A DNA stretch of 64,000 nt from NCBI GenBank assembly GCA_000004695.1, contig CM000152.2, positions 5,536,001 through 5,600,000 on the forward strand. The letters run 5' to 3'. The first letter of the stretch is position 1, and each line of letters opens with the position of its first letter. This DNA is from Dictyostelium discoideum (taxonomy: Eukaryota). Shown piece after piece: positions 930 to 12,140 of this stretch. The position numbers and the translations under genes are program-made. The notes under the pieces were generated by a model. It searched no databases. It was not told the origin of the DNA and was given only the letters and a program-made list of their open reading frames with translations.

Positions 930-3307
<2,378 letters not shown>

Positions 3308-3487
3308 TAAAATCTTTTTTTTTTTAATTTATTTTTTTAACCTATTTTTTATTTATTTTTTTTTTGGGTTTTTCAAAAAAAGGTCTGAAAACCTAATTAT
3401 TGGAAAAAAAGTGTTTTGATATAGAACAAAATAAGCGAAAATGAATTTAGAAGATCGTTTCAAATTTCATTTGATTTTTATTAAATT

Positions 3488-3527
<40 letters not shown>

Positions 3528-3828
3528 GGACAACACCAGACCAAATCAAATTATTTTTTAAAATGGGAACAAATAAAGAATTTGGTTAATGTCAATTTAC
3601 TGGTAAAAGAAAAAAAAAAAAAAATATCTAACAATCAAGTATGTGATTTTCAAAAAATGTATAATCATTGGATTATAATAAAAATAAAATAAAAATATTT
3701 TTATAAATACTACAAAAAAATTAATTAATTTACAGTTTAGTGGTTTAAAAAAAATAAAAAAAAAAAAAGTTAAAATAAACTTAAAAAACCTATTATTAGA
3801 ACACACAGATCGAAATTACAAATCACCA

Positions 3829-3875
<47 letters not shown>

Positions 3876-4110
3876 GAAAAAAAAAAAATAAAAAATAAAA
3901 AAAAATAAAAAATAAATTTGGGCTCACCCACAAAAGATCAGTATCTGATTGTTTTTTTTTTTTTTATAATATTGATTTTGAAAAATTCAAATTTCTAAAA
4001 ATTGGATAGATACCTTTTGATTAAACAAAATTTTTTAAATTAGAGATGTTTCAAATAAAACCAGTTTTTATGCTCCAAATTATTTTTTTTTTTTTTTTTT
4101 TTTTTTCTTC

Positions 4111-4149
<39 letters not shown>

Positions 4150-4642
4150 AGAAAATATAATACAATAATTTAAAAAAAAAAAATTAAAAAATAAAAAAAT
4201 TTATTTATTAGTTTTTTTAATTTTAATTTACAAATCTATTATCATATTTAAATATTTTTTTATAATCAAAATAAATCAAAATCAAAAAATATTTTAATTC
4301 TTAACCAAATTCAATAAAAAAAAAAACAATTATAATAATTGTCAAAAATCAAATCAAAAAATAAAAAAAAAAAAAAAATAATTAAAAAAAATAAAAAAAA
4401 ATAAATTTTTTATCGTCCATTTATCGTCTTTGGGATTGAAATAAAAACCCTTTGAAAAAAAAAAAAAAAAAAAAAAAAAGCAAAAATAAATTTGTCTGCA
4501 AAGATATACGAAAAAAAAAAAAAATAATAAAAAAAAAATTGGCACACTAAAATTAAAAATAACAGCAAAGATAAAAAAAAAAAAAAAAAAAAAAAAACAG
4601 CAAATATATAATTATATAAAACAATATAATAAAAAAAAAGAT

Positions 4643-6909
4643 ATGGAAATTGATAATTTATTTTTTTACTGTTGGAGAAATGTTTATATTAGAGGTTTAA
4701 TATTTAATTTTATTAAAACCAATAAAACAGAATTAATAAATCCAAATTTTGGTATTTACAATTATTATCAAATGAATGATGTAAATTTAATGGCAACAAA
4801 TAAAGGATTAAAGCAATTGTTAGTTGAAAAGGTTGAAAAAAAATATCATTTAAATTTTAATTTTTCAAAATCTGGAATTCCTTTTGAAAATATTTTTAAA
4901 AATTTTAAAAATGAAACTGATAAAGAATTTTTTAATAATCTATTCAAAAATTATCCAAATTATTTTTTATCTTCAATTGATATAACAGCAGAATATTCAA
5001 TGGCCTGTGATTGTGTTGTTGCATTCCAAGTTTTAGTAAATAATTTTAATTATACTCCAATTAATTGTAAACAATTATTTATTGATTCAATTTTAAAAGG
5101 TTCTATCGAAACTTCAAAATTAATAAATGAAAAGTTTAATCCAAAACTAAACCAAATTGATTATGATGAAATTTGGAAATTATTATTAAATAAGAATGTT
5201 GACCTTGTAATAGAAGAAACTATTCCAAATAATGACCCAATTGGTAAAATTAATAAATCAATTGAATATTTAGTAAAAGAATTAAATGCACCCTTACCAC
5301 CACCTATCGATAATAATTCATTTAAATGTTTTATTGATTTTTCAATTAAAAATAGAAATCTTGAATATATTTTATCAACTTGTTATTCAATTTCCTATTT
5401 AAAATCATCTTTGGAATTATTTATTTCTCCATTTCCAAATTTAACCAATTCATTTAAAATTTTAACAATTAAAGAATTGGATGAAATTAAAATGAAATTA
5501 ACTAGACAAGAATTAGAAAGTAATGTACAAGATATTGAAACTAATAATGAAATAATTTCAAAATTAGTTGGAATGGCTTCAAAATTTACAAGTATTAATT
5601 TTTATTTTAATATGGTATTTTATTATCAACATTATGAAAATAATTATATAACTTTAATGAAATTGAAAATCAAAATCAAAATTTATCATTATTTAATGAA
5701 ATTTTAATTGCACATGGTAATTATAAAGGAATAGTTGAAAATGTTGATTTAATGGAACTTGAACCACATCAAAAAGGTAAATCAATTATAATCACTGGTA
5801 AAGAATCATTTAAAATTTTTAGATCATGTAAAAATAATATTGAAAATGTTTTTAAAATAATGGTACAAGATATTATTGATAATTTCACATTTAGAACTAA
5901 ACCATTAACTGAGATTCATTCAGTTTTAGATATTATTAAATTTTTAGCTACTTTTGGTGATACAAAATTAGTTTTAGAATTATTTGCAGAAATTAATAAA
6001 AACTATGTAATAGTTTCAGGGTACCCAAATCAAGCATATTCTCTAGTAACTTCAACTGAAATGTTTGATATTATATTTTTTAAATTTAAAAATGCATTTA
6101 GATTAAATGAAATTTATGATCTTGTTGATTCAAATAATGATAGAACAAATACTTATTTAATTTTAGATCATTTTAAATCAAAATATCCAAATGAATATAA
6201 TAAAGTAGTAGCACATTATAATCCATTGCCAAATCATTTATTAAATGAATTTATTTTCAATAATTTAGAAGAACATAAACAAAAACTAATTGAAAGTGAA
6301 TGTTGGCTAAATAGAGTAAGAAATGGTGTTGTACCATTAGAACATTTTAAAAAACTTTTAGAAATCACTCCAGATGATCAAGAATATCATTGTTTTGAAA
6401 GTAGTGAAATTTTTAATTATGTTTTCAATCAACGTATGCATGATATTGAAAATGGTAGATTTCAATTAACTCAAAGATCAAATTTATTAAATTATTATGT
6501 TACTGGTAAATTAGAAACAACAATTTTAAATTATATTGAAAAACCAATAAATTTTCCAAATTTAAATAGTTGTATAGATTTATTAATTAAATTTAATGAT
6601 TTAATTTCATTGAAATTCATTTTTGATTATTTTAATTTACCAAATTGTTCAAATTATCAAATATTCTTTAAAAATCATTTAATATTGATATCAGAACAAA
6701 ATAATTTACAAGTTTTATCATTTATTTTTCAAAATTATCCAACATTACTAACTCAAGAAAATTTACAATTCTTATTTAATCATTGTTATCAAAAAACTGC
6801 CTCGATTGAAATAATTAATTATATTATTAAATCAATTAGATTTAAACCAAATTTATTAAATTTATATTCTATTCCGATTGTAAAAAATTATTTTAATTTT
6901 TCAAATTAA
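4643..6909 (+). CDS. Dictyostelium-specific Asn-rich family protein, paralog A. The reading frame is broken near 5640-5750 (ORFs 4643-5707 and 5752-6909), so it is a possible pseudogene or carries a frameshift.
   Basis: Both ORFs are collinear with the intact 788-aa paralog at 7803-10169 (MEIDNLFFYCWRNVYI vs ELFFYCWENVYI; NAPLPPPIDNNSFKCFIDFSIKNRNLEYILSTCYSISYLKSSLELF shared). The second ORF continues the homology (KGKSIIITGKESFKIFRSCK vs NGKSIYFLGFESYTLFRSCK) only after a +1 shift. TAA and TAG stops fall in the gap, and there is no GT..AG intron of plausible size. Confidence 0.5.
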
Positions 6910-7518
6910 AAAATTATATTAATAAAATTTTAAATATATAAAATAAATAAAAATAATTTTTTTTTTATATATAACATTTATTTTTATGTGTTTGTTATTG
7001 TAATAATAACTATTCAAAGATAATATATTTATATTTGATCGTTTTAAAATATTTTTAATAATAATAACAAACCAATATAAAATAAAAAATTTTTTTGTAA
7101 ATTAAAAAGGTATTAATTAATTATTGTTATTAAACATTAAAAAAATAAAAATTATTTCATTTACTAGATATTGAGAATAAAAATTACAAATTTGTTTGTA
7201 TTTTTTTATTTTTTTTATTTGTGTTAAAATTGTTTTATAAAAAAATAAATAAATAAAGATAAAAATAAAATAAAATTAAATTTTTATCAATAAATTGGAA
7301 AAAAAAATAATAACAACACTAGGTTTTAATATGGGGGTTTTAATTTGTAATTTTGAAATTATTAATTTGTTATTTTATTTTAGATCACACACCACACAAT
7401 TTAAATTCATTTTACATGTTCTCATCATTAAAATTAATTTTTTATTTAATTTAACACTATAAAAAACAATCGTTTTGTGCAATAAAAAAATAATTTGTTT
7501 ATTTATGTTACAATTAAT

Positions 7519-7560
<42 letters not shown>

Positions 7561-7802
7561 CATAATTTAACACTTTATTAAAATTATTATTTTATCTAGG
7601 TGTTAAAATTATTTATATTAAATATAGTTTAATATTTTAATATTTTAATATTTTTTATATTGCCATAAAGAAAAAAAAAATAATAATAATAATAAAAAAA
7701 AAAAAAAAAAAAAAAATAATAATAGTAATAATTTAATTTTTTTAATTTAATTTTTATAATTTATAATTAATAAAATTATAACAAATTAAAAGAAAGAAAG
7801 AA

Positions 7803-10169
7803 ATGGAAATAAATAATGGTACATTAAAAAGGAATTCAGAATTATTTTTTTATTGTTGGGAAAATGTTTACATAAAAAAAGTAATTTTTGAAAATTTAAA
7901 AACAAATAAAACTTCAATAATAAACCTATTATATGGAATATATAATTATTTACAATTAAATGATGTTAATACAATTACAACAAATGAAAACTTACATATT
8001 TTATTAATAGATAAAATTAAAAAAACAAGAAATTTAAATTTTAATTTTCCAAAAACCAAGATTCCCTTTGAATTAATTTTCCAAAAGTTTAATTCAAATG
8101 AAACAATTGATTTTTATAAAGATTTATTTAAAAATTATCCAAAGTATTTCCTTTCTTCAATGGATGCAATTTGTGAATATGCAATCAAATGTAATAATAT
8201 AGTTGCAATTCAAGTTTTAATAAAACATTTTTCATTTGTCCCAAATAATAGTAAAGAAATTCTAATAAGTTCAATTTTAAATGGGTCATTCAAAGTTGCA
8301 AGTTTTTTAAAAGAATCTTTTAATATAAACCTTACCAATGAAGATTATAATAAAATATGGAATTATTTATTATACAATGAAAATGTGGAAGGCACAAAAC
8401 AAGAAGCCCATTCAATGTTTGAAGTAATAAAACATAATAAAAATATAAATTTTAATAAAATAAATGATTCAATTGAATATTTAGTAAAAGAATTAAATGC
8501 ACCATTACCATCACCTATTGGTAATAATTCATTTAAATGTTTCATTGATTTTTCAATTAAAAAAAGAAATCTTGAATTTATTTTATCAACTTGTTATTCA
8601 ATTTCATATTTAAAATCATCTTTGGAATTATTTATTTCACCCAATCCAAATTTAACGAATTCAATTAAAATTTTATCAATTAAAGAATTGGATGAAATTA
8701 AAATGAAATTAACTAGACAAGAATTAGAAAGTAATGTACAAGATATTGAAACTAATAATGAAATAATTTCAAAATTAGTTGGAATGGCTTCAAAATTTAC
8801 AAATATTAATTTTAATGTTAATATGAAGTTTTATTATCAACATTATTATTTTAATGAACCACCTAAACAATGGGGAGATTTTTTAACAAATATTTATAAC
8901 TATATTGAAATTTCAATATCACACGGAGATTATAAAGATTTGGTACTAAATATTAATAAACTACCAATTGATCCTACAATTAATGGTAAATCAATTTATT
9001 TTTTGGGTTTCGAATCATACACATTATTTAGATCATGTAAAAGTATAATGAACCAAAAATGTGAAATATTTATTCAAGATGTTGTTAATCATCAATTAGA
9101 TACAACAATTGCACCAGAATTAAAACATTCAATTATTGATGTTATAAAATTTTTTATTACTTTAGGAAATATTGAATTGATTCAACAACTTTTTATACAA
9201 CTAGATTATTTCAATATTCAAATTAATCCATCAAATTTAATATACTCTTTTATTAATTCAACTGAAATGTTTGATTTAATTTATCAAAGATTTAGAGAAA
9301 CATTCAATTTAAATGAAATTTTAGAAATTGTAAATATGTATAATAAGGTTGAAATTAAATATTTAATACTATACCATTTTAAAAACAACTATACCCAAGA
9401 TTATTATCAACAACTTGAAAATTATATACCATGTGTAAATAATTTATTAAATGAATTTATTTTTGAAAATATTCAAGATTTTCAAAATAAATTAATAGAA
9501 TCAAATTTTTGGTCAAATTCTTATGCAATTAAAACTATAAATACCAATCTCCCATTAAAACATTTTAAAAAATTATTAGAAATAACTCCTATTGATCATG
9601 AATATTATCATTGTTTTAATAATTTTGAAAATTTAAAATATGTAATAGATTTTAGAAAACAAGATATAATCAACAATCGTAGATTTTATATACAATTTGA
9701 AAATTCATCAATTTATAATATATATGCATGTGGAATGATGGAAGAAATTTTTGAGGAATGTTTAGAAAAACCAATTAATATCCCAATGGAAAATTTAAAT
9801 AATACATTTGATTTAATGATTAAATCAATTGATTTAAAATCAATTAAATTTATAATTGATTATTTTAATCTAACAAATAATAATACATTTATTCAAAACT
9901 TTAAGGGATGTTTAAATACAATCTCAAAGTTTAACCGAATTGAAGTTTTATCATTCATATACAATAACTATCCAACACTATTATCTCAAAATAATTTACA
10001 ATCATTATTTGAACATTGTTTACAAGTAACAGGTTCAATTGAAATAATTCAATTTTTAATTAAAGATATTAGATTTAAACCAAACCTTGAAAATATTGAT
10101 AAAAATATTAATTTTACAGATAAAACTTTTATAACTAAAAATTATTTTTTAAAATATTTAAATAAATAA
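7803..10169 (+). CDS. Dictyostelium-specific Asn-rich family protein, paralog B (788 aa, intact single exon)
   Basis: Long uninterrupted ORF. It is a tandem paralog of 4643-6909 and shares a ~126-nt block at 100 percent identity with it. No domain recognised. Confidence 0.65.
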   Translation: MEINNGTLKRNSELFFYCWENVYIKKVIFENLKTNKTSIINLLYGIYNYLQLNDVNTITTNENLHILLIDKIKKTRNLNFNFPKTKIPFELIFQKFNSNETIDFYKDLFKNYPKYFLSSMDAICEYAIKCNNIVAIQVLIKHFSFVPNNSKEILISSILNGSFKVASFLKESFNINLTNEDYNKIWNYLLYNENVEGTKQEAHSMFEVIKHNKNINFNKINDSIEYLVKELNAPLPSPIGNNSFKCFIDFSIKKRNLEFILSTCYSISYLKSSLELFISPNPNLTNSIKILSIKELDEIKMKLTRQELESNVQDIETNNEIISKLVGMASKFTNINFNVNMKFYYQHYYFNEPPKQWGDFLTNIYNYIEISISHGDYKDLVLNINKLPIDPTINGKSIYFLGFESYTLFRSCKSIMNQKCEIFIQDVVNHQLDTTIAPELKHSIIDVIKFFITLGNIELIQQLFIQLDYFNIQINPSNLIYSFINSTEMFDLIYQRFRETFNLNEILEIVNMYNKVEIKYLILYHFKNNYTQDYYQQLENYIPCVNNLLNEFIFENIQDFQNKLIESNFWSNSYAIKTINTNLPLKHFKKLLEITPIDHEYYHCFNNFENLKYVIDFRKQDIINNRRFYIQFENSSIYNIYACGMMEEIFEECLEKPINIPMENLNNTFDLMIKSIDLKSIKFIIDYFNLTNNNTFIQNFKGCLNTISKFNRIEVLSFIYNNYPTLLSQNNLQSLFEHCLQVTGSIEIIQFLIKDIRFKPNLENIDKNINFTDKTFITKNYFLKYLNK

Positions 10170-10264
10170 TAATTTTATTTATATTTCTCTATGGTTGTAC
10201 AACAAATTATTTATTTTTTATTTATTTATTATTTATTATTTGTTTTATTTATTATTTAATTTAT

Positions 10265-12140
10265 TTATTTCTTCTTTTTTACAGCTTCTAATTTTAAGAG
10301 AGTTTTACCAATTTTAATAGTATCACCAGGTAAGAGATAAGCTTTACTAATTCTTTTATGATTAACTTTAGTACCATGACCAGAACCTAAATCAATGATA
10401 ATTACAGAATTTTCAGAAACTTCAATTTTACAATGGCTTCTTGATACTTTTTTATCACCAACAGTGACAATACAACTTTCAGAACGACCAATTGTATTAT
10501 TACCTAAATTTAATTTGACAACAGCTGGTTTTTCAGTTGGTGGTAAATCGAAGGGTGTGATAATTAAAGTTGCAGTGAACTTTTTACCATAACCATTGAT
10601 TGGTTGTTGATGAACACCTTCTTCTGACACTCTTGGTTGTTGATTTAATTTTAATTTATCCATTGGTGGCATATCAATTAATTTCTTACCTTCTTTTGCA
10701 TTATTTAATGCTAATACCCAATCTTTCATTGCAACATGATGTTTAGCTTTCAATATAAATACACTTAATGGTGTTGATAATTTAAAGCAATGTCTAAGAT
10801 CTGGTGAATCACAAACTGAAATATCTGTATATTTTAATGTAATAACACCTTGTGGTGGCTAAAAAAAAAAAAAATTAGTAATCTAAAGATTTAATAAAAA
10901 CATATATATATATGTATATATATATAATGTAATAGTTTACCATTTTTGAACTTTTATAATAATATAAACATCTTTCAACTAAAACGAAATAATAACCTTT
11001 CCAAGTTATTTGATCATCACTATCTTCCATTATTAATAGATTACCAGATTTATCTTTTTTAGATTTATTCAAAATATTTGAAGAGTAAGTATCAATCTCT
11101 TGAAGTAAAATTAAAAGACGATCCAATTCAACTTGAGTTTTTTGTTCAAACAATGGTGAAACTACAGTGTAAGCTTCGAGACGTTCATCATAATCGGTTT
11201 GAGTTAGATTAGTTCTAACTAGATTTTGTAAAACTGAATTCCATTGTTCAAATTCTTCATTTGTAGAGGCACAAAGTGAATCGATTCTTTTATTCTTTGA
11301 AAAGATTTGTAATTGATAATTACCAACGTTTGGAGTTTTCATATCGATAAGATTCTTTTCTTTCAATGGGATTGGTGGTGTGATGAATGAGATTGTGATT
11401 GTACCTTTTGGTTTTCTTGCTTTTTTGGTTTTAAAATAATGTAAATGATTACCAATCAATACGAAATAATATTTCTTCCAACCTGCGGCGAATCTACTCT
11501 TTTTCAATAACTCACCCTCCATAGTTGCATGATTATGTTCTGCTTCCAATACCCAACCACGATCGATAACTGATAAATGTGATGATATCTTTTTGTCAAG
11601 CGAACTTTGTTGTTCTGTTAATAATTTAATATCAGTTTTATTATCCTTTTTACCACCACTGCCACCACGTACACCATCAACTTCATTACCACTGTTGTCT
11701 TCATTTGATGAGGTTATTGGTCTAATCTCTTTTGGTTTCTTTGAAGATGATGATGCTTTTTTAATTGCTTTATGATCATCATCTGCTTCATCCTCTGATG
11801 ATGAATAAATATCATAACTATAATAATTTGAATTAATTCTTTGATTAAATTCATCCTCTGTAATTGGTACTGGTCCTCTAATACTACCTGAACTTTCATT
11901 CTTTCTATGAATTACATCAAATTCATCCTCATCATGATTTTTATGATTACTTGGGCTACTTGATGTTGTTGTAGTTGTTGTTTGTTTTTTACTAATACTA
12001 CCACTTGTAGATGATGATGATTCTTTCTTTTTACTACTACTGTTACTACTAGATGATGATTTCTTTTCTTTCTTTGATGATCTTGTTAATGGTTCTTCAA
12101 TAAATTCATCCTCTTCTAAGTCTACTAATTTACCAAACAT
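10265..12140 (-). CDS. PH-PH-FHA domain protein (~597 aa). Two exons, 12140-10941 and 10858-10265, on the minus strand.
   Basis: Two PH-like segments are present (GWKKYYFVLIGNHLHYFKTKK...EEFEQWNSVLQNL and ITWKGYYFVLVERCLYYYKSSKM|PPQGVITLKYTD...VAMKDWVLALNNA). The second is split by an 82-nt intron with a GTAAAC donor and a poly-T tract before AG. The C-terminus has an FHA signature (GRSESCIVTVGDKKVSRSHCKIEVSENSVIIIDLGSGHGTKVNHKRI...LLPGDTIKIG). The N-terminal region is Ser-rich. Confidence 0.7.

Follow-up and report, generated by a model that had tools for sequence, protein, structure and literature searches.

How do two adjacent genes, diverged over most of their length, come to share one internal segment that is almost the same in both? 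The question is raised by a tandem pair in Dictyostelium discoideum AX4, within a window of 64,000 nucleotides (nts) (GCA_000004695.1, contig CM000152.2, positions 5,536,001 to 5,600,000 of the forward strand; positions below are those of the window). Paralog A, DDB_G0282225 (Q54SU0), lies at 4643-6909 and paralog B, DDB_G0282227 (Q54ST9), at 7803-10169, both on the + strand, with a gap of ~0.9 kb between them and ~3.2 kb from start to start. They are the sole duplicated pair within the window. B is a single open reading frame (ORF) of 788 aa whose translation equals the database protein exactly, and the product of A is considered below. Overall DNA identity of A and B is ~65%, and protein identity outside the shared segment is 48-50%. 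The segment itself, a tract of ~345 bp, very probably owes its similarity to recurrent interlocus gene conversion, that is, to concerted evolution confined to one domain of the tandem paralogs.

The high-identity zone in AX4 extends over 391 nts (A 5245-5635, B 8456-8846) and aligns without gaps at an offset of +3211, with 24 mismatches and 93.9% identity. In 60-nt sliding windows the identity of A to B is 88-100% inside the zone and 47-78% elsewhere, with abrupt edges, so that the profile, a check proposed in a first-pass annotation of this DNA, is not uniform. That annotation had described a ~380-nt region of more than 90% identity; a region of this kind does exist, though the ranges assigned to it in the two genes (372 and 380 nts) did not agree in length. 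It had also reported a block of 126 nts with 100% identity, which is present at A 5466-5591 and is the longest exact match between the genes. The partner of the block is B 8677-8802 and not, as had been given, B 8683-8808, a pairing shifted by 6 nts that is not identical. Long exact matches near the block all share the single diagonal at +3211, and the longest outside the zone is 22 nts. At the background identity of 65% a perfect run of 126 nts would be met by chance with a probability of ~3e-24, and the run also exceeds the length expected from the mismatch density of the tract in which it lies (permutation P = 0.009 over 5258-5600 and 0.002 over 5245-5635). Protein identity of A to B inside the tract is 91%.

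The similarity is not limited to the encoded amino acids. Within AX4, Nei-Gojobori estimates for A against B give numbers of synonymous (dS) and non-synonymous (dN) substitutions per site of 0.66 and 0.39 in the left flank and 0.73 and 0.44 in the right flank, 0.12 and 0.044 in the tract, and 0 for both in the core block. The fall in synonymous divergence that the first-pass annotation suggested looking for is thus plain, from 0.66-0.73 in the flanks to 0.11-0.12 in the tract and none in the core. Where A and B carry the same amino acid the codons are identical at 105 of 112 positions in the tract and at 214 of 286 in the flanks (Fisher P = 6e-6), with 39 of 39 identical in the core block; homogeneity therefore extends to synonymous sites.

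For comparison with relatives, the syntenic locus was taken from seven further genomes and aligned with the AX4 window: D. firmibasis (L001), D. cf. discoideum ACTFIZ (L002), D. citrinum (L003), D. dimigraforme (L004), D. discoideum ACTFIR (L005), D. cf. discoideum ACTFIY (L006) and D. discoideum ACTFIW (L007). With AX4 these make 8 wild genomes from at least five species, whose A and B genes formed a codon alignment of 16 sequences; a near-identical lab-strain assembly (L008, GCA_054883475.1) brings the number of assemblies to nine. L008 is probably the AX2-214 genome of a study in which new Dictyostelium genomes were assembled from Nanopore and Illumina reads (PMC12745789), and the fetched assemblies appear to be members of that genome set. 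In 7 of 7 fetched genomes the tandem is flanked by a KBP_C-domain gene and a PH/FHA gene, the B ortholog is directly downstream of A, and both genes are intact and intronless (A orthologs are of 754-766 aa). Gene order and copy number are constant across all nine assemblies. Protein searches found homologues in Dictyostelium only, and these split into A-type and B-type orthologues.

The same tract with the same borders (about 5258-5600) is present in all seven syntenic loci, which answers the first-pass suggestion that other strains and species be inspected. In every genome the nucleotide distance between A and B is 0.048-0.14 in the tract and 0.33-0.40 in the flanks; over the 8 wild genomes paralog dS is 0.085-0.23 in the tract and 0.69-1.34 in the flanks. 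Paralogs within one genome are closer to each other in the tract than to their orthologs in both D. firmibasis, where A and B differ by 4.8% and AX4 differs from D. firmibasis by 16%, and D. dimigraforme, where the corresponding values are 6.6% and 13.5%. The synonymous sites of the tract are not frozen, because its ortholog dS is near normal: from AX4 to D. firmibasis it is 0.53 and 0.51 in the tract and 0.56 and 0.91 in the flanks.

Informative sites in quartets of two A and two B sequences were scored as concerted or orthologous, inside the tract and outside it. The ratio of concerted to orthologous sites for AX4 with D. firmibasis is 41:2 in the tract and 25:253 outside; for AX4 with D. 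dimigraforme it is 31:3 and 9:344, and for D. dimigraforme with D. firmibasis 48:3 and 24:270. The left switch point falls between 5244-5257 and 5263-5264 and the right one between 5572-5581 and 5603-5615 in all quartet comparisons, which agree with each other to within ~20 nts. Neighbour-joining trees tell the same story. Flanks separate A from B with 100% bootstrap support, whereas in the tract that split has 0% and A and B of the same genome are sisters in D. firmibasis (100%), D. dimigraforme (100%), ACTFIZ (87.5%) and D. citrinum (60%). Together with the identity profile and dS, the switch points and the tree place the tract at 5258-5600 of A (+ strand, 115 codons) and, gaplessly at +3211, at 8469-8811 of B (+ strand), where it encodes B residues 223-337.

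Changes that are private to one genome and yet common to both of its copies are concentrated in the tract. Both D. firmibasis copies share 24 private bases in the 343-nt tract (7 synonymous, 17 non-synonymous) and 16 in ~1950 nts outside; for D. dimigraforme the numbers are 12 in the tract (10 non-synonymous) and 3 outside. The AX4 copies share one, inside the 126-nt block, and none outside: a G at 5505 in A and 8716 in B (AGA, Arg, + strand), which changes Lys to Arg in the sequence LTRQ and is replaced by another base in all 14 other sequences, most of which have Lys. The longest identical run of A with B also differs from genome to genome, being 146 nts ending at 5445 in D. firmibasis, 98 nts ending at 5408 in ACTFIZ, 93 nts ending at 5401 in D. 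dimigraforme and the 126 nts ending at 5591 in AX4. The mosaic of identical runs is peculiar to each genome, and so are the private substitutions that its two copies share; the events were independent.

Homogenisation of ~345 bp has thus occurred repeatedly and in a lineage-specific manner, between stable borders, and began before D. discoideum and D. firmibasis separated. Their split is placed at roughly 50-100 million years ago (PMC12745789), and the concerted evolution of the tract, which involved more than one event, has lasted about as long. The 126-nt block with its private G5505 is the footprint of the latest conversion, in the AX4/AX2 lineage. Paralog dS in the AX4 tract, ~0.1, is like the ortholog dS of AX4 against ACTFIR and ACTFIW (0.08-0.10) and about one fifth or less of the D. 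firmibasis distance, from which we infer that a typical tract site is re-homogenised on roughly the timescale of the divergence of AX4 from ACTFIR and ACTFIW. The first-pass annotation had proposed recent ectopic gene conversion. Conversion is supported, each check suggested there speaking for it and against a domain that is simply conserved, but "recent" fits only the last event in an island that is long-lived.

Several results weigh against this account or limit its reach. In the tract tree the sequences of the discoideum complex form one mixed cluster, in which A and B of AX4 are sisters in 21% of bootstraps. In the same complex the tract retains a few paralog-specific sites, at 5432-5433 (Phe/Asn) and 5453 (Phe/Ile), and homogenisation must therefore be incomplete or patchy there, or be locally opposed by selection. 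For D. citrinum and D. dimigraforme ortholog dS is lower in the tract (0.26-0.29) than in the flanks (0.44-0.49), and ortholog dN in the tract is ~1.5-2 times below that of the flanks, with dN/dS of ~0.22; some extra constraint therefore adds to the similarity. No signature of GC-biased conversion was found among the 16 sequences, the GC content of third codon positions being 0.03-0.13 in the tract and 0.07-0.18 in the flanks. The non-reciprocity, direction and molecular pathway of conversion are deduced from end states. Finally, the zone of high identity in AX4 runs beyond the tract itself. Its last 33 nts (5603-5635) have paralog-specific sites at 5603, 5615 and 5617 that are stable in all species, and encode FYYQHY, which is invariant in all 16 sequences; similarity there is conservation and not exchange.

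Could selection have produced the island with no DNA exchange at all? Purifying selection on a conserved domain might seem to suffice, as conservation in the wider protein family is highest in the tract (28-43% identity to distant members, with 22-31% for the rest of the protein), the ortholog dN of the tract to D. firmibasis is 0.12 where that of the flanks is 0.18-0.26, and its immediate right-hand neighbour, ending in FYYQHY, does look like simple conservation. However, such modest conservation cannot alone yield 91% protein identity in the tract against 49% elsewhere, nor would it homogenise synonymous sites between paralogs (dS 0.09-0.23) whose orthologs differ at ~0.5 from D. firmibasis, produce the excess of identical codons (P = 6e-6), bring paralogs within a species nearer than orthologs (4.8% against 16% for D. 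firmibasis) or make trees of tract and flanks incongruent at bootstraps of 100%. On its own it is very unlikely. That the identity reaches synonymous sites would be understandable if both coding sequences held a conserved nucleotide-level element, such as a structured RNA, an antisense transcript or a regulatory site, but the version of the sequence differs with each species and the synonymous divergence of orthologs in the tract is near normal; Rfam also gives nothing at E <= 0.1 for the two strands of 4000-10500, neither gene contains an opposite-strand ORF of 80 aa or more, and we consider such an element extremely improbable. Parallel substitution in the two copies under a common selective pressure is a scarcely credible substitute for exchange. 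Non-synonymous changes do prevail among the private shared ones (17 of 24 for D. firmibasis, 10 of 12 for D. dimigraforme), but the two D. firmibasis copies also share 7 synonymous ones, the density of shared changes in the tract is ~9 times that outside, perfect runs of 93-146 nts are not expected from change site by site, and dozens of identical sites would have had to mutate independently. The chance that reads of one paralog were built into the other, giving an artefact of assembly or annotation, is negligible: although a likely base-calling or strain difference does lie nearby (the missing T at 5651 considered below), the AX4 tract still has 16-24 copy-specific differences, and 8 other independent assemblies, including the near-identical lab-strain one, carry the same island.

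A different matter is whether conversion, as the mechanism, is accompanied by selection for the presence of the same module in both proteins, which might bind one partner or each other through it, with homogenised haplotypes being favoured and conversions that stray into the flanks being removed. In favour of this, the borders coincide in all lineages over an estimated 50-100 million years (a time taken from PMC12745789), the dN/dS of ~0.22 marks the module as functional, and in the predicted structure the tract matches a discrete helical block (B residues ~217-334) between two low-confidence, indel-rich linkers. Loss of homology in the flanks, where the longest match is 22 nts and indels stand at the edges, would, however, account for fixed borders just as well, and paralog-specific residues remain inside the module. 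A literature search for DDB_G0282225 found no papers and hence no functional data, which also counts against this proposal. We regard it as unlikely, though it is the most serious of the alternatives. Borders are most simply explained by lost homology outside the tract. On the left there is a 24-nt indel, an 8-codon insertion in B relative to A (8430-8453, + strand) that lies directly left of the tract in a poorly aligned stretch and marks the border, and next to it sequence that cannot be aligned; on the right are indels with ~55% identity.

How recurrent gene conversion would have shaped the pair may be pictured as follows. The duplication is older than the last ancestor that D. discoideum, D. 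citrinum, D. dimigraforme and D. firmibasis had in common, and over ~85% of gene length A and B have since evolved as separate orthologous lineages, now ~35% different in nucleotides and ~50% in amino acids. In the tract, the sequence of one gene would have been repeatedly overwritten by that of the other through non-reciprocal homologous recombination. Each conversion would remove the differences from a stretch of tens to a few hundred bases and move new mutations into both copies, and the tract would in this way change in concert within a genome while diverging between species. The last such event in AX4 would have left the 126 identical bases and placed the private Lys-to-Arg change (G5505/G8716) in both genes. 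A plausible route is that a break in one copy was repaired from the other, lying on the same chromatid or on its sister, by synthesis-dependent strand annealing and mismatch repair of heteroduplex. Exchange would remain confined because the flanks offer no usable homology (exact matches of at most 22 nts, with indels at both edges), and the island would be self-sustaining, high identity allowing conversion and conversion maintaining identity. It may have started as a segment that was probably the most constrained part of the protein family. Unequal crossover is argued against because copy number and gene order are unchanged in the nine assemblies. No third copy of the tract that might serve as donor was found in the window, and no near-identical segment in other database proteins.

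The direction of the last AX4 event is ambiguous from diagnostic sites and a Pro/Asn indel, since the A copy has a B-like short indel with A-like substitutions and the indel is in a slippage-prone repeat. This repeat is a microsatellite-like patch of Pro, Ser and Asn codons (CCA/TCA/AAT) inside the tract at 5296-5315 of A (+ strand), with its counterpart at B 8507-8523. The length of the patch differs between strains and copies, with 0 to ~30 extra nts in loci L002-L007. In the A copy of AX4 the patch is short and B-like, and in this it differs from the five other A orthologues of the discoideum and citrinum lineages; the short state arose either by slippage or by a small B-to-A conversion.

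Just beyond the island, the gene model of A calls for revision. The first-pass annotation treated 4643-6909 as one gene; in the window it is two ORFs, 4643-5707 and 5752-6909, into which A is split by a 1-nt deletion. The missing T belongs at 5650-5651 (+ strand; ATATA-AC where ATATATAC is expected), 15 nts past the high-identity zone. It is present in L008 and in all seven orthologues, and over 4643-10169 it is the sole difference of L008, in which both genes are otherwise base for base the same. Either the AX4 reference is in error at this point or the strain has a genuine frameshift of its own. In the database DDB_G0282225 is modelled as a protein of 707 aa, which the window gives exactly once a single 143-nt GT...AG "intron" at 5592-5734 is spliced out. 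A real intron there was considered and rejected: its removal would cost A 47 codons that all orthologues conserve in frame, and insertion of one T is enough to mend the reading frame. The GT donor of the "intron" is created by an AX4-private G at 5592, which is the first mismatch past the 126-nt block. The "intron" looks like a patch over the frameshift. Almost certainly the current AX4 model is wrong, and the true product of A is probably of 755 aa and encoded without introns.

By full-length profile similarity A and B belong to an unnamed, Dictyostelium-restricted family of helical-repeat proteins of 700-890 aa, which includes DDB_G0270810 and DDB_G0289685. A family profile search returned 17 representatives at E <= 0.001, of which the named ones are all from Dictyostelium save for a weak mollusc match (E 1.2e-5, over a 53-residue stretch). 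Membership of the ankyrin-repeat class was also considered and rejected, the score of B residues 120-178 with Pfam Ank_2 (PF12796) being 21 bits, below the gathering threshold of 27.3, and a Pfam search of the A fragments giving no match. The AlphaFold2 model of B is of moderate quality (predicted local distance difference test score, pLDDT, of 65) and has a helical-repeat fold, with the linkers beside the tract block, residues 193-214 and 335-416, at pLDDT below 50. Foldseek searches of the Protein Data Bank with this model gave nothing at E <= 0.001. Because the structural matches are generic helical-repeat (PPR-like) ones, with E above 0.001 and template-modelling scores below 0.3, no function is assignable to B.

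The surroundings of the pair are extremely AT-rich, with a GC content of 13-32% in 2-kb windows and long intergenic stretches of poly(A) and poly(T). Homopolymer runs (T ~45, A ~25-30) flank both genes, at 3820-3880, 4085-4150, 4455-4600, 7520-7555 and 7690-7715; their lengths differ by 3-10 nts between the window and L008 and are the source of most differences between the two assemblies. No tRNA gene came up in a scan of the window. Outside the tract B has evolved faster than A between AX4 and D. firmibasis (dN 0.26 and 0.18, dS 0.91 and 0.56, nucleotide distance 0.27 and 0.20, for B and A respectively). ACTFIR and ACTFIW have ~95.5% identity to AX4 in the PH/FHA gene (window 10265-12140) and ~92% upstream (1900-3700), low values that fit the divergent "discoideum-related clade" described earlier (PMC12745789). 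Hyper-polymorphism of A and B between strains, as in tgr genes, was tested for and not seen; their identity is 96-97.5%, against 95.5% for the neighbouring PH/FHA gene.

Long-lived concerted evolution restricted to a segment of duplicated genes is already well documented, and the A/B pair adds no new principle. The human gamma-globin genes HBG1 and HBG2 are tandem duplicates ~5 kb apart, with a conversion tract that covers part of the gene and ends at a simple-sequence repeat. A and B are likewise direct tandem duplicates, separated by a few kb, whose internal tract has sharp bounds and includes a simple-sequence patch (CCA/TCA/AAT, 5296-5315), but their flanks are far more diverged (35% of nucleotides). 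Mammalian gene pairs have been described that underwent conversion and evolved in concert for over 100 million years (PMC2720389). Those pairs too have homogeneous stretches in diverged paralogs, where paralogs are nearer to each other than to orthologs, and the pattern persists across speciation; unlike them, A and B are in the AT-rich genome of an amoebozoan that is haploid in growth, and their tract of ~345 bp has the same borders in all lineages examined. Islands of divergence and conversion occur in the GOT1 paralogs of Tigriopus (PMC3728101), and escape from concerted evolution has been described for the CEA family (PMC7042247). In these, as here, converted and non-converted regions form a mosaic, and the non-converted ones are read as having escaped through divergence or selection. 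The proportions are reversed, however: theirs are small diverged islands in a homogenised gene, while A and B have a small converted island in a diverged sea. No description of the A/B pair was found in the literature, and the only Dictyostelium paper near the topic concerns the tgr locus, where recombination drives mosaicism of the allorecognition genes tgrB1 and tgrC1 (PMC12745789). There, in the same species and assembly set, recombination among related copies also shapes coding sequence, but it creates diversity at a structurally unstable locus, whereas the A/B locus is perfectly syntenic and exchange homogenises one module.

One speculative extension deserves mention. Selection might actively hold a helical block of ~115 residues identical in the two proteins, for a common partner or for pairing of A with B, and conversion would then let the genes co-evolve with that partner in lock-step while their other domains specialise. 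We consider this quite unlikely, but if it were true, borders fixed over 50-100 million years would be those of a functional domain. What the tract means for the study of the family is more immediate, as trees or dating based on it would wrongly show the duplication to be recent and species-specific. For the organism, the pair is a clean natural case of domain-restricted concerted evolution with a comparative series of nine assemblies from at least five species in perfect synteny, and since the host is haploid in growth and genetically tractable, the rate of conversion, the length and direction of its tracts and its dependence on recombination and mismatch repair should be directly measurable.

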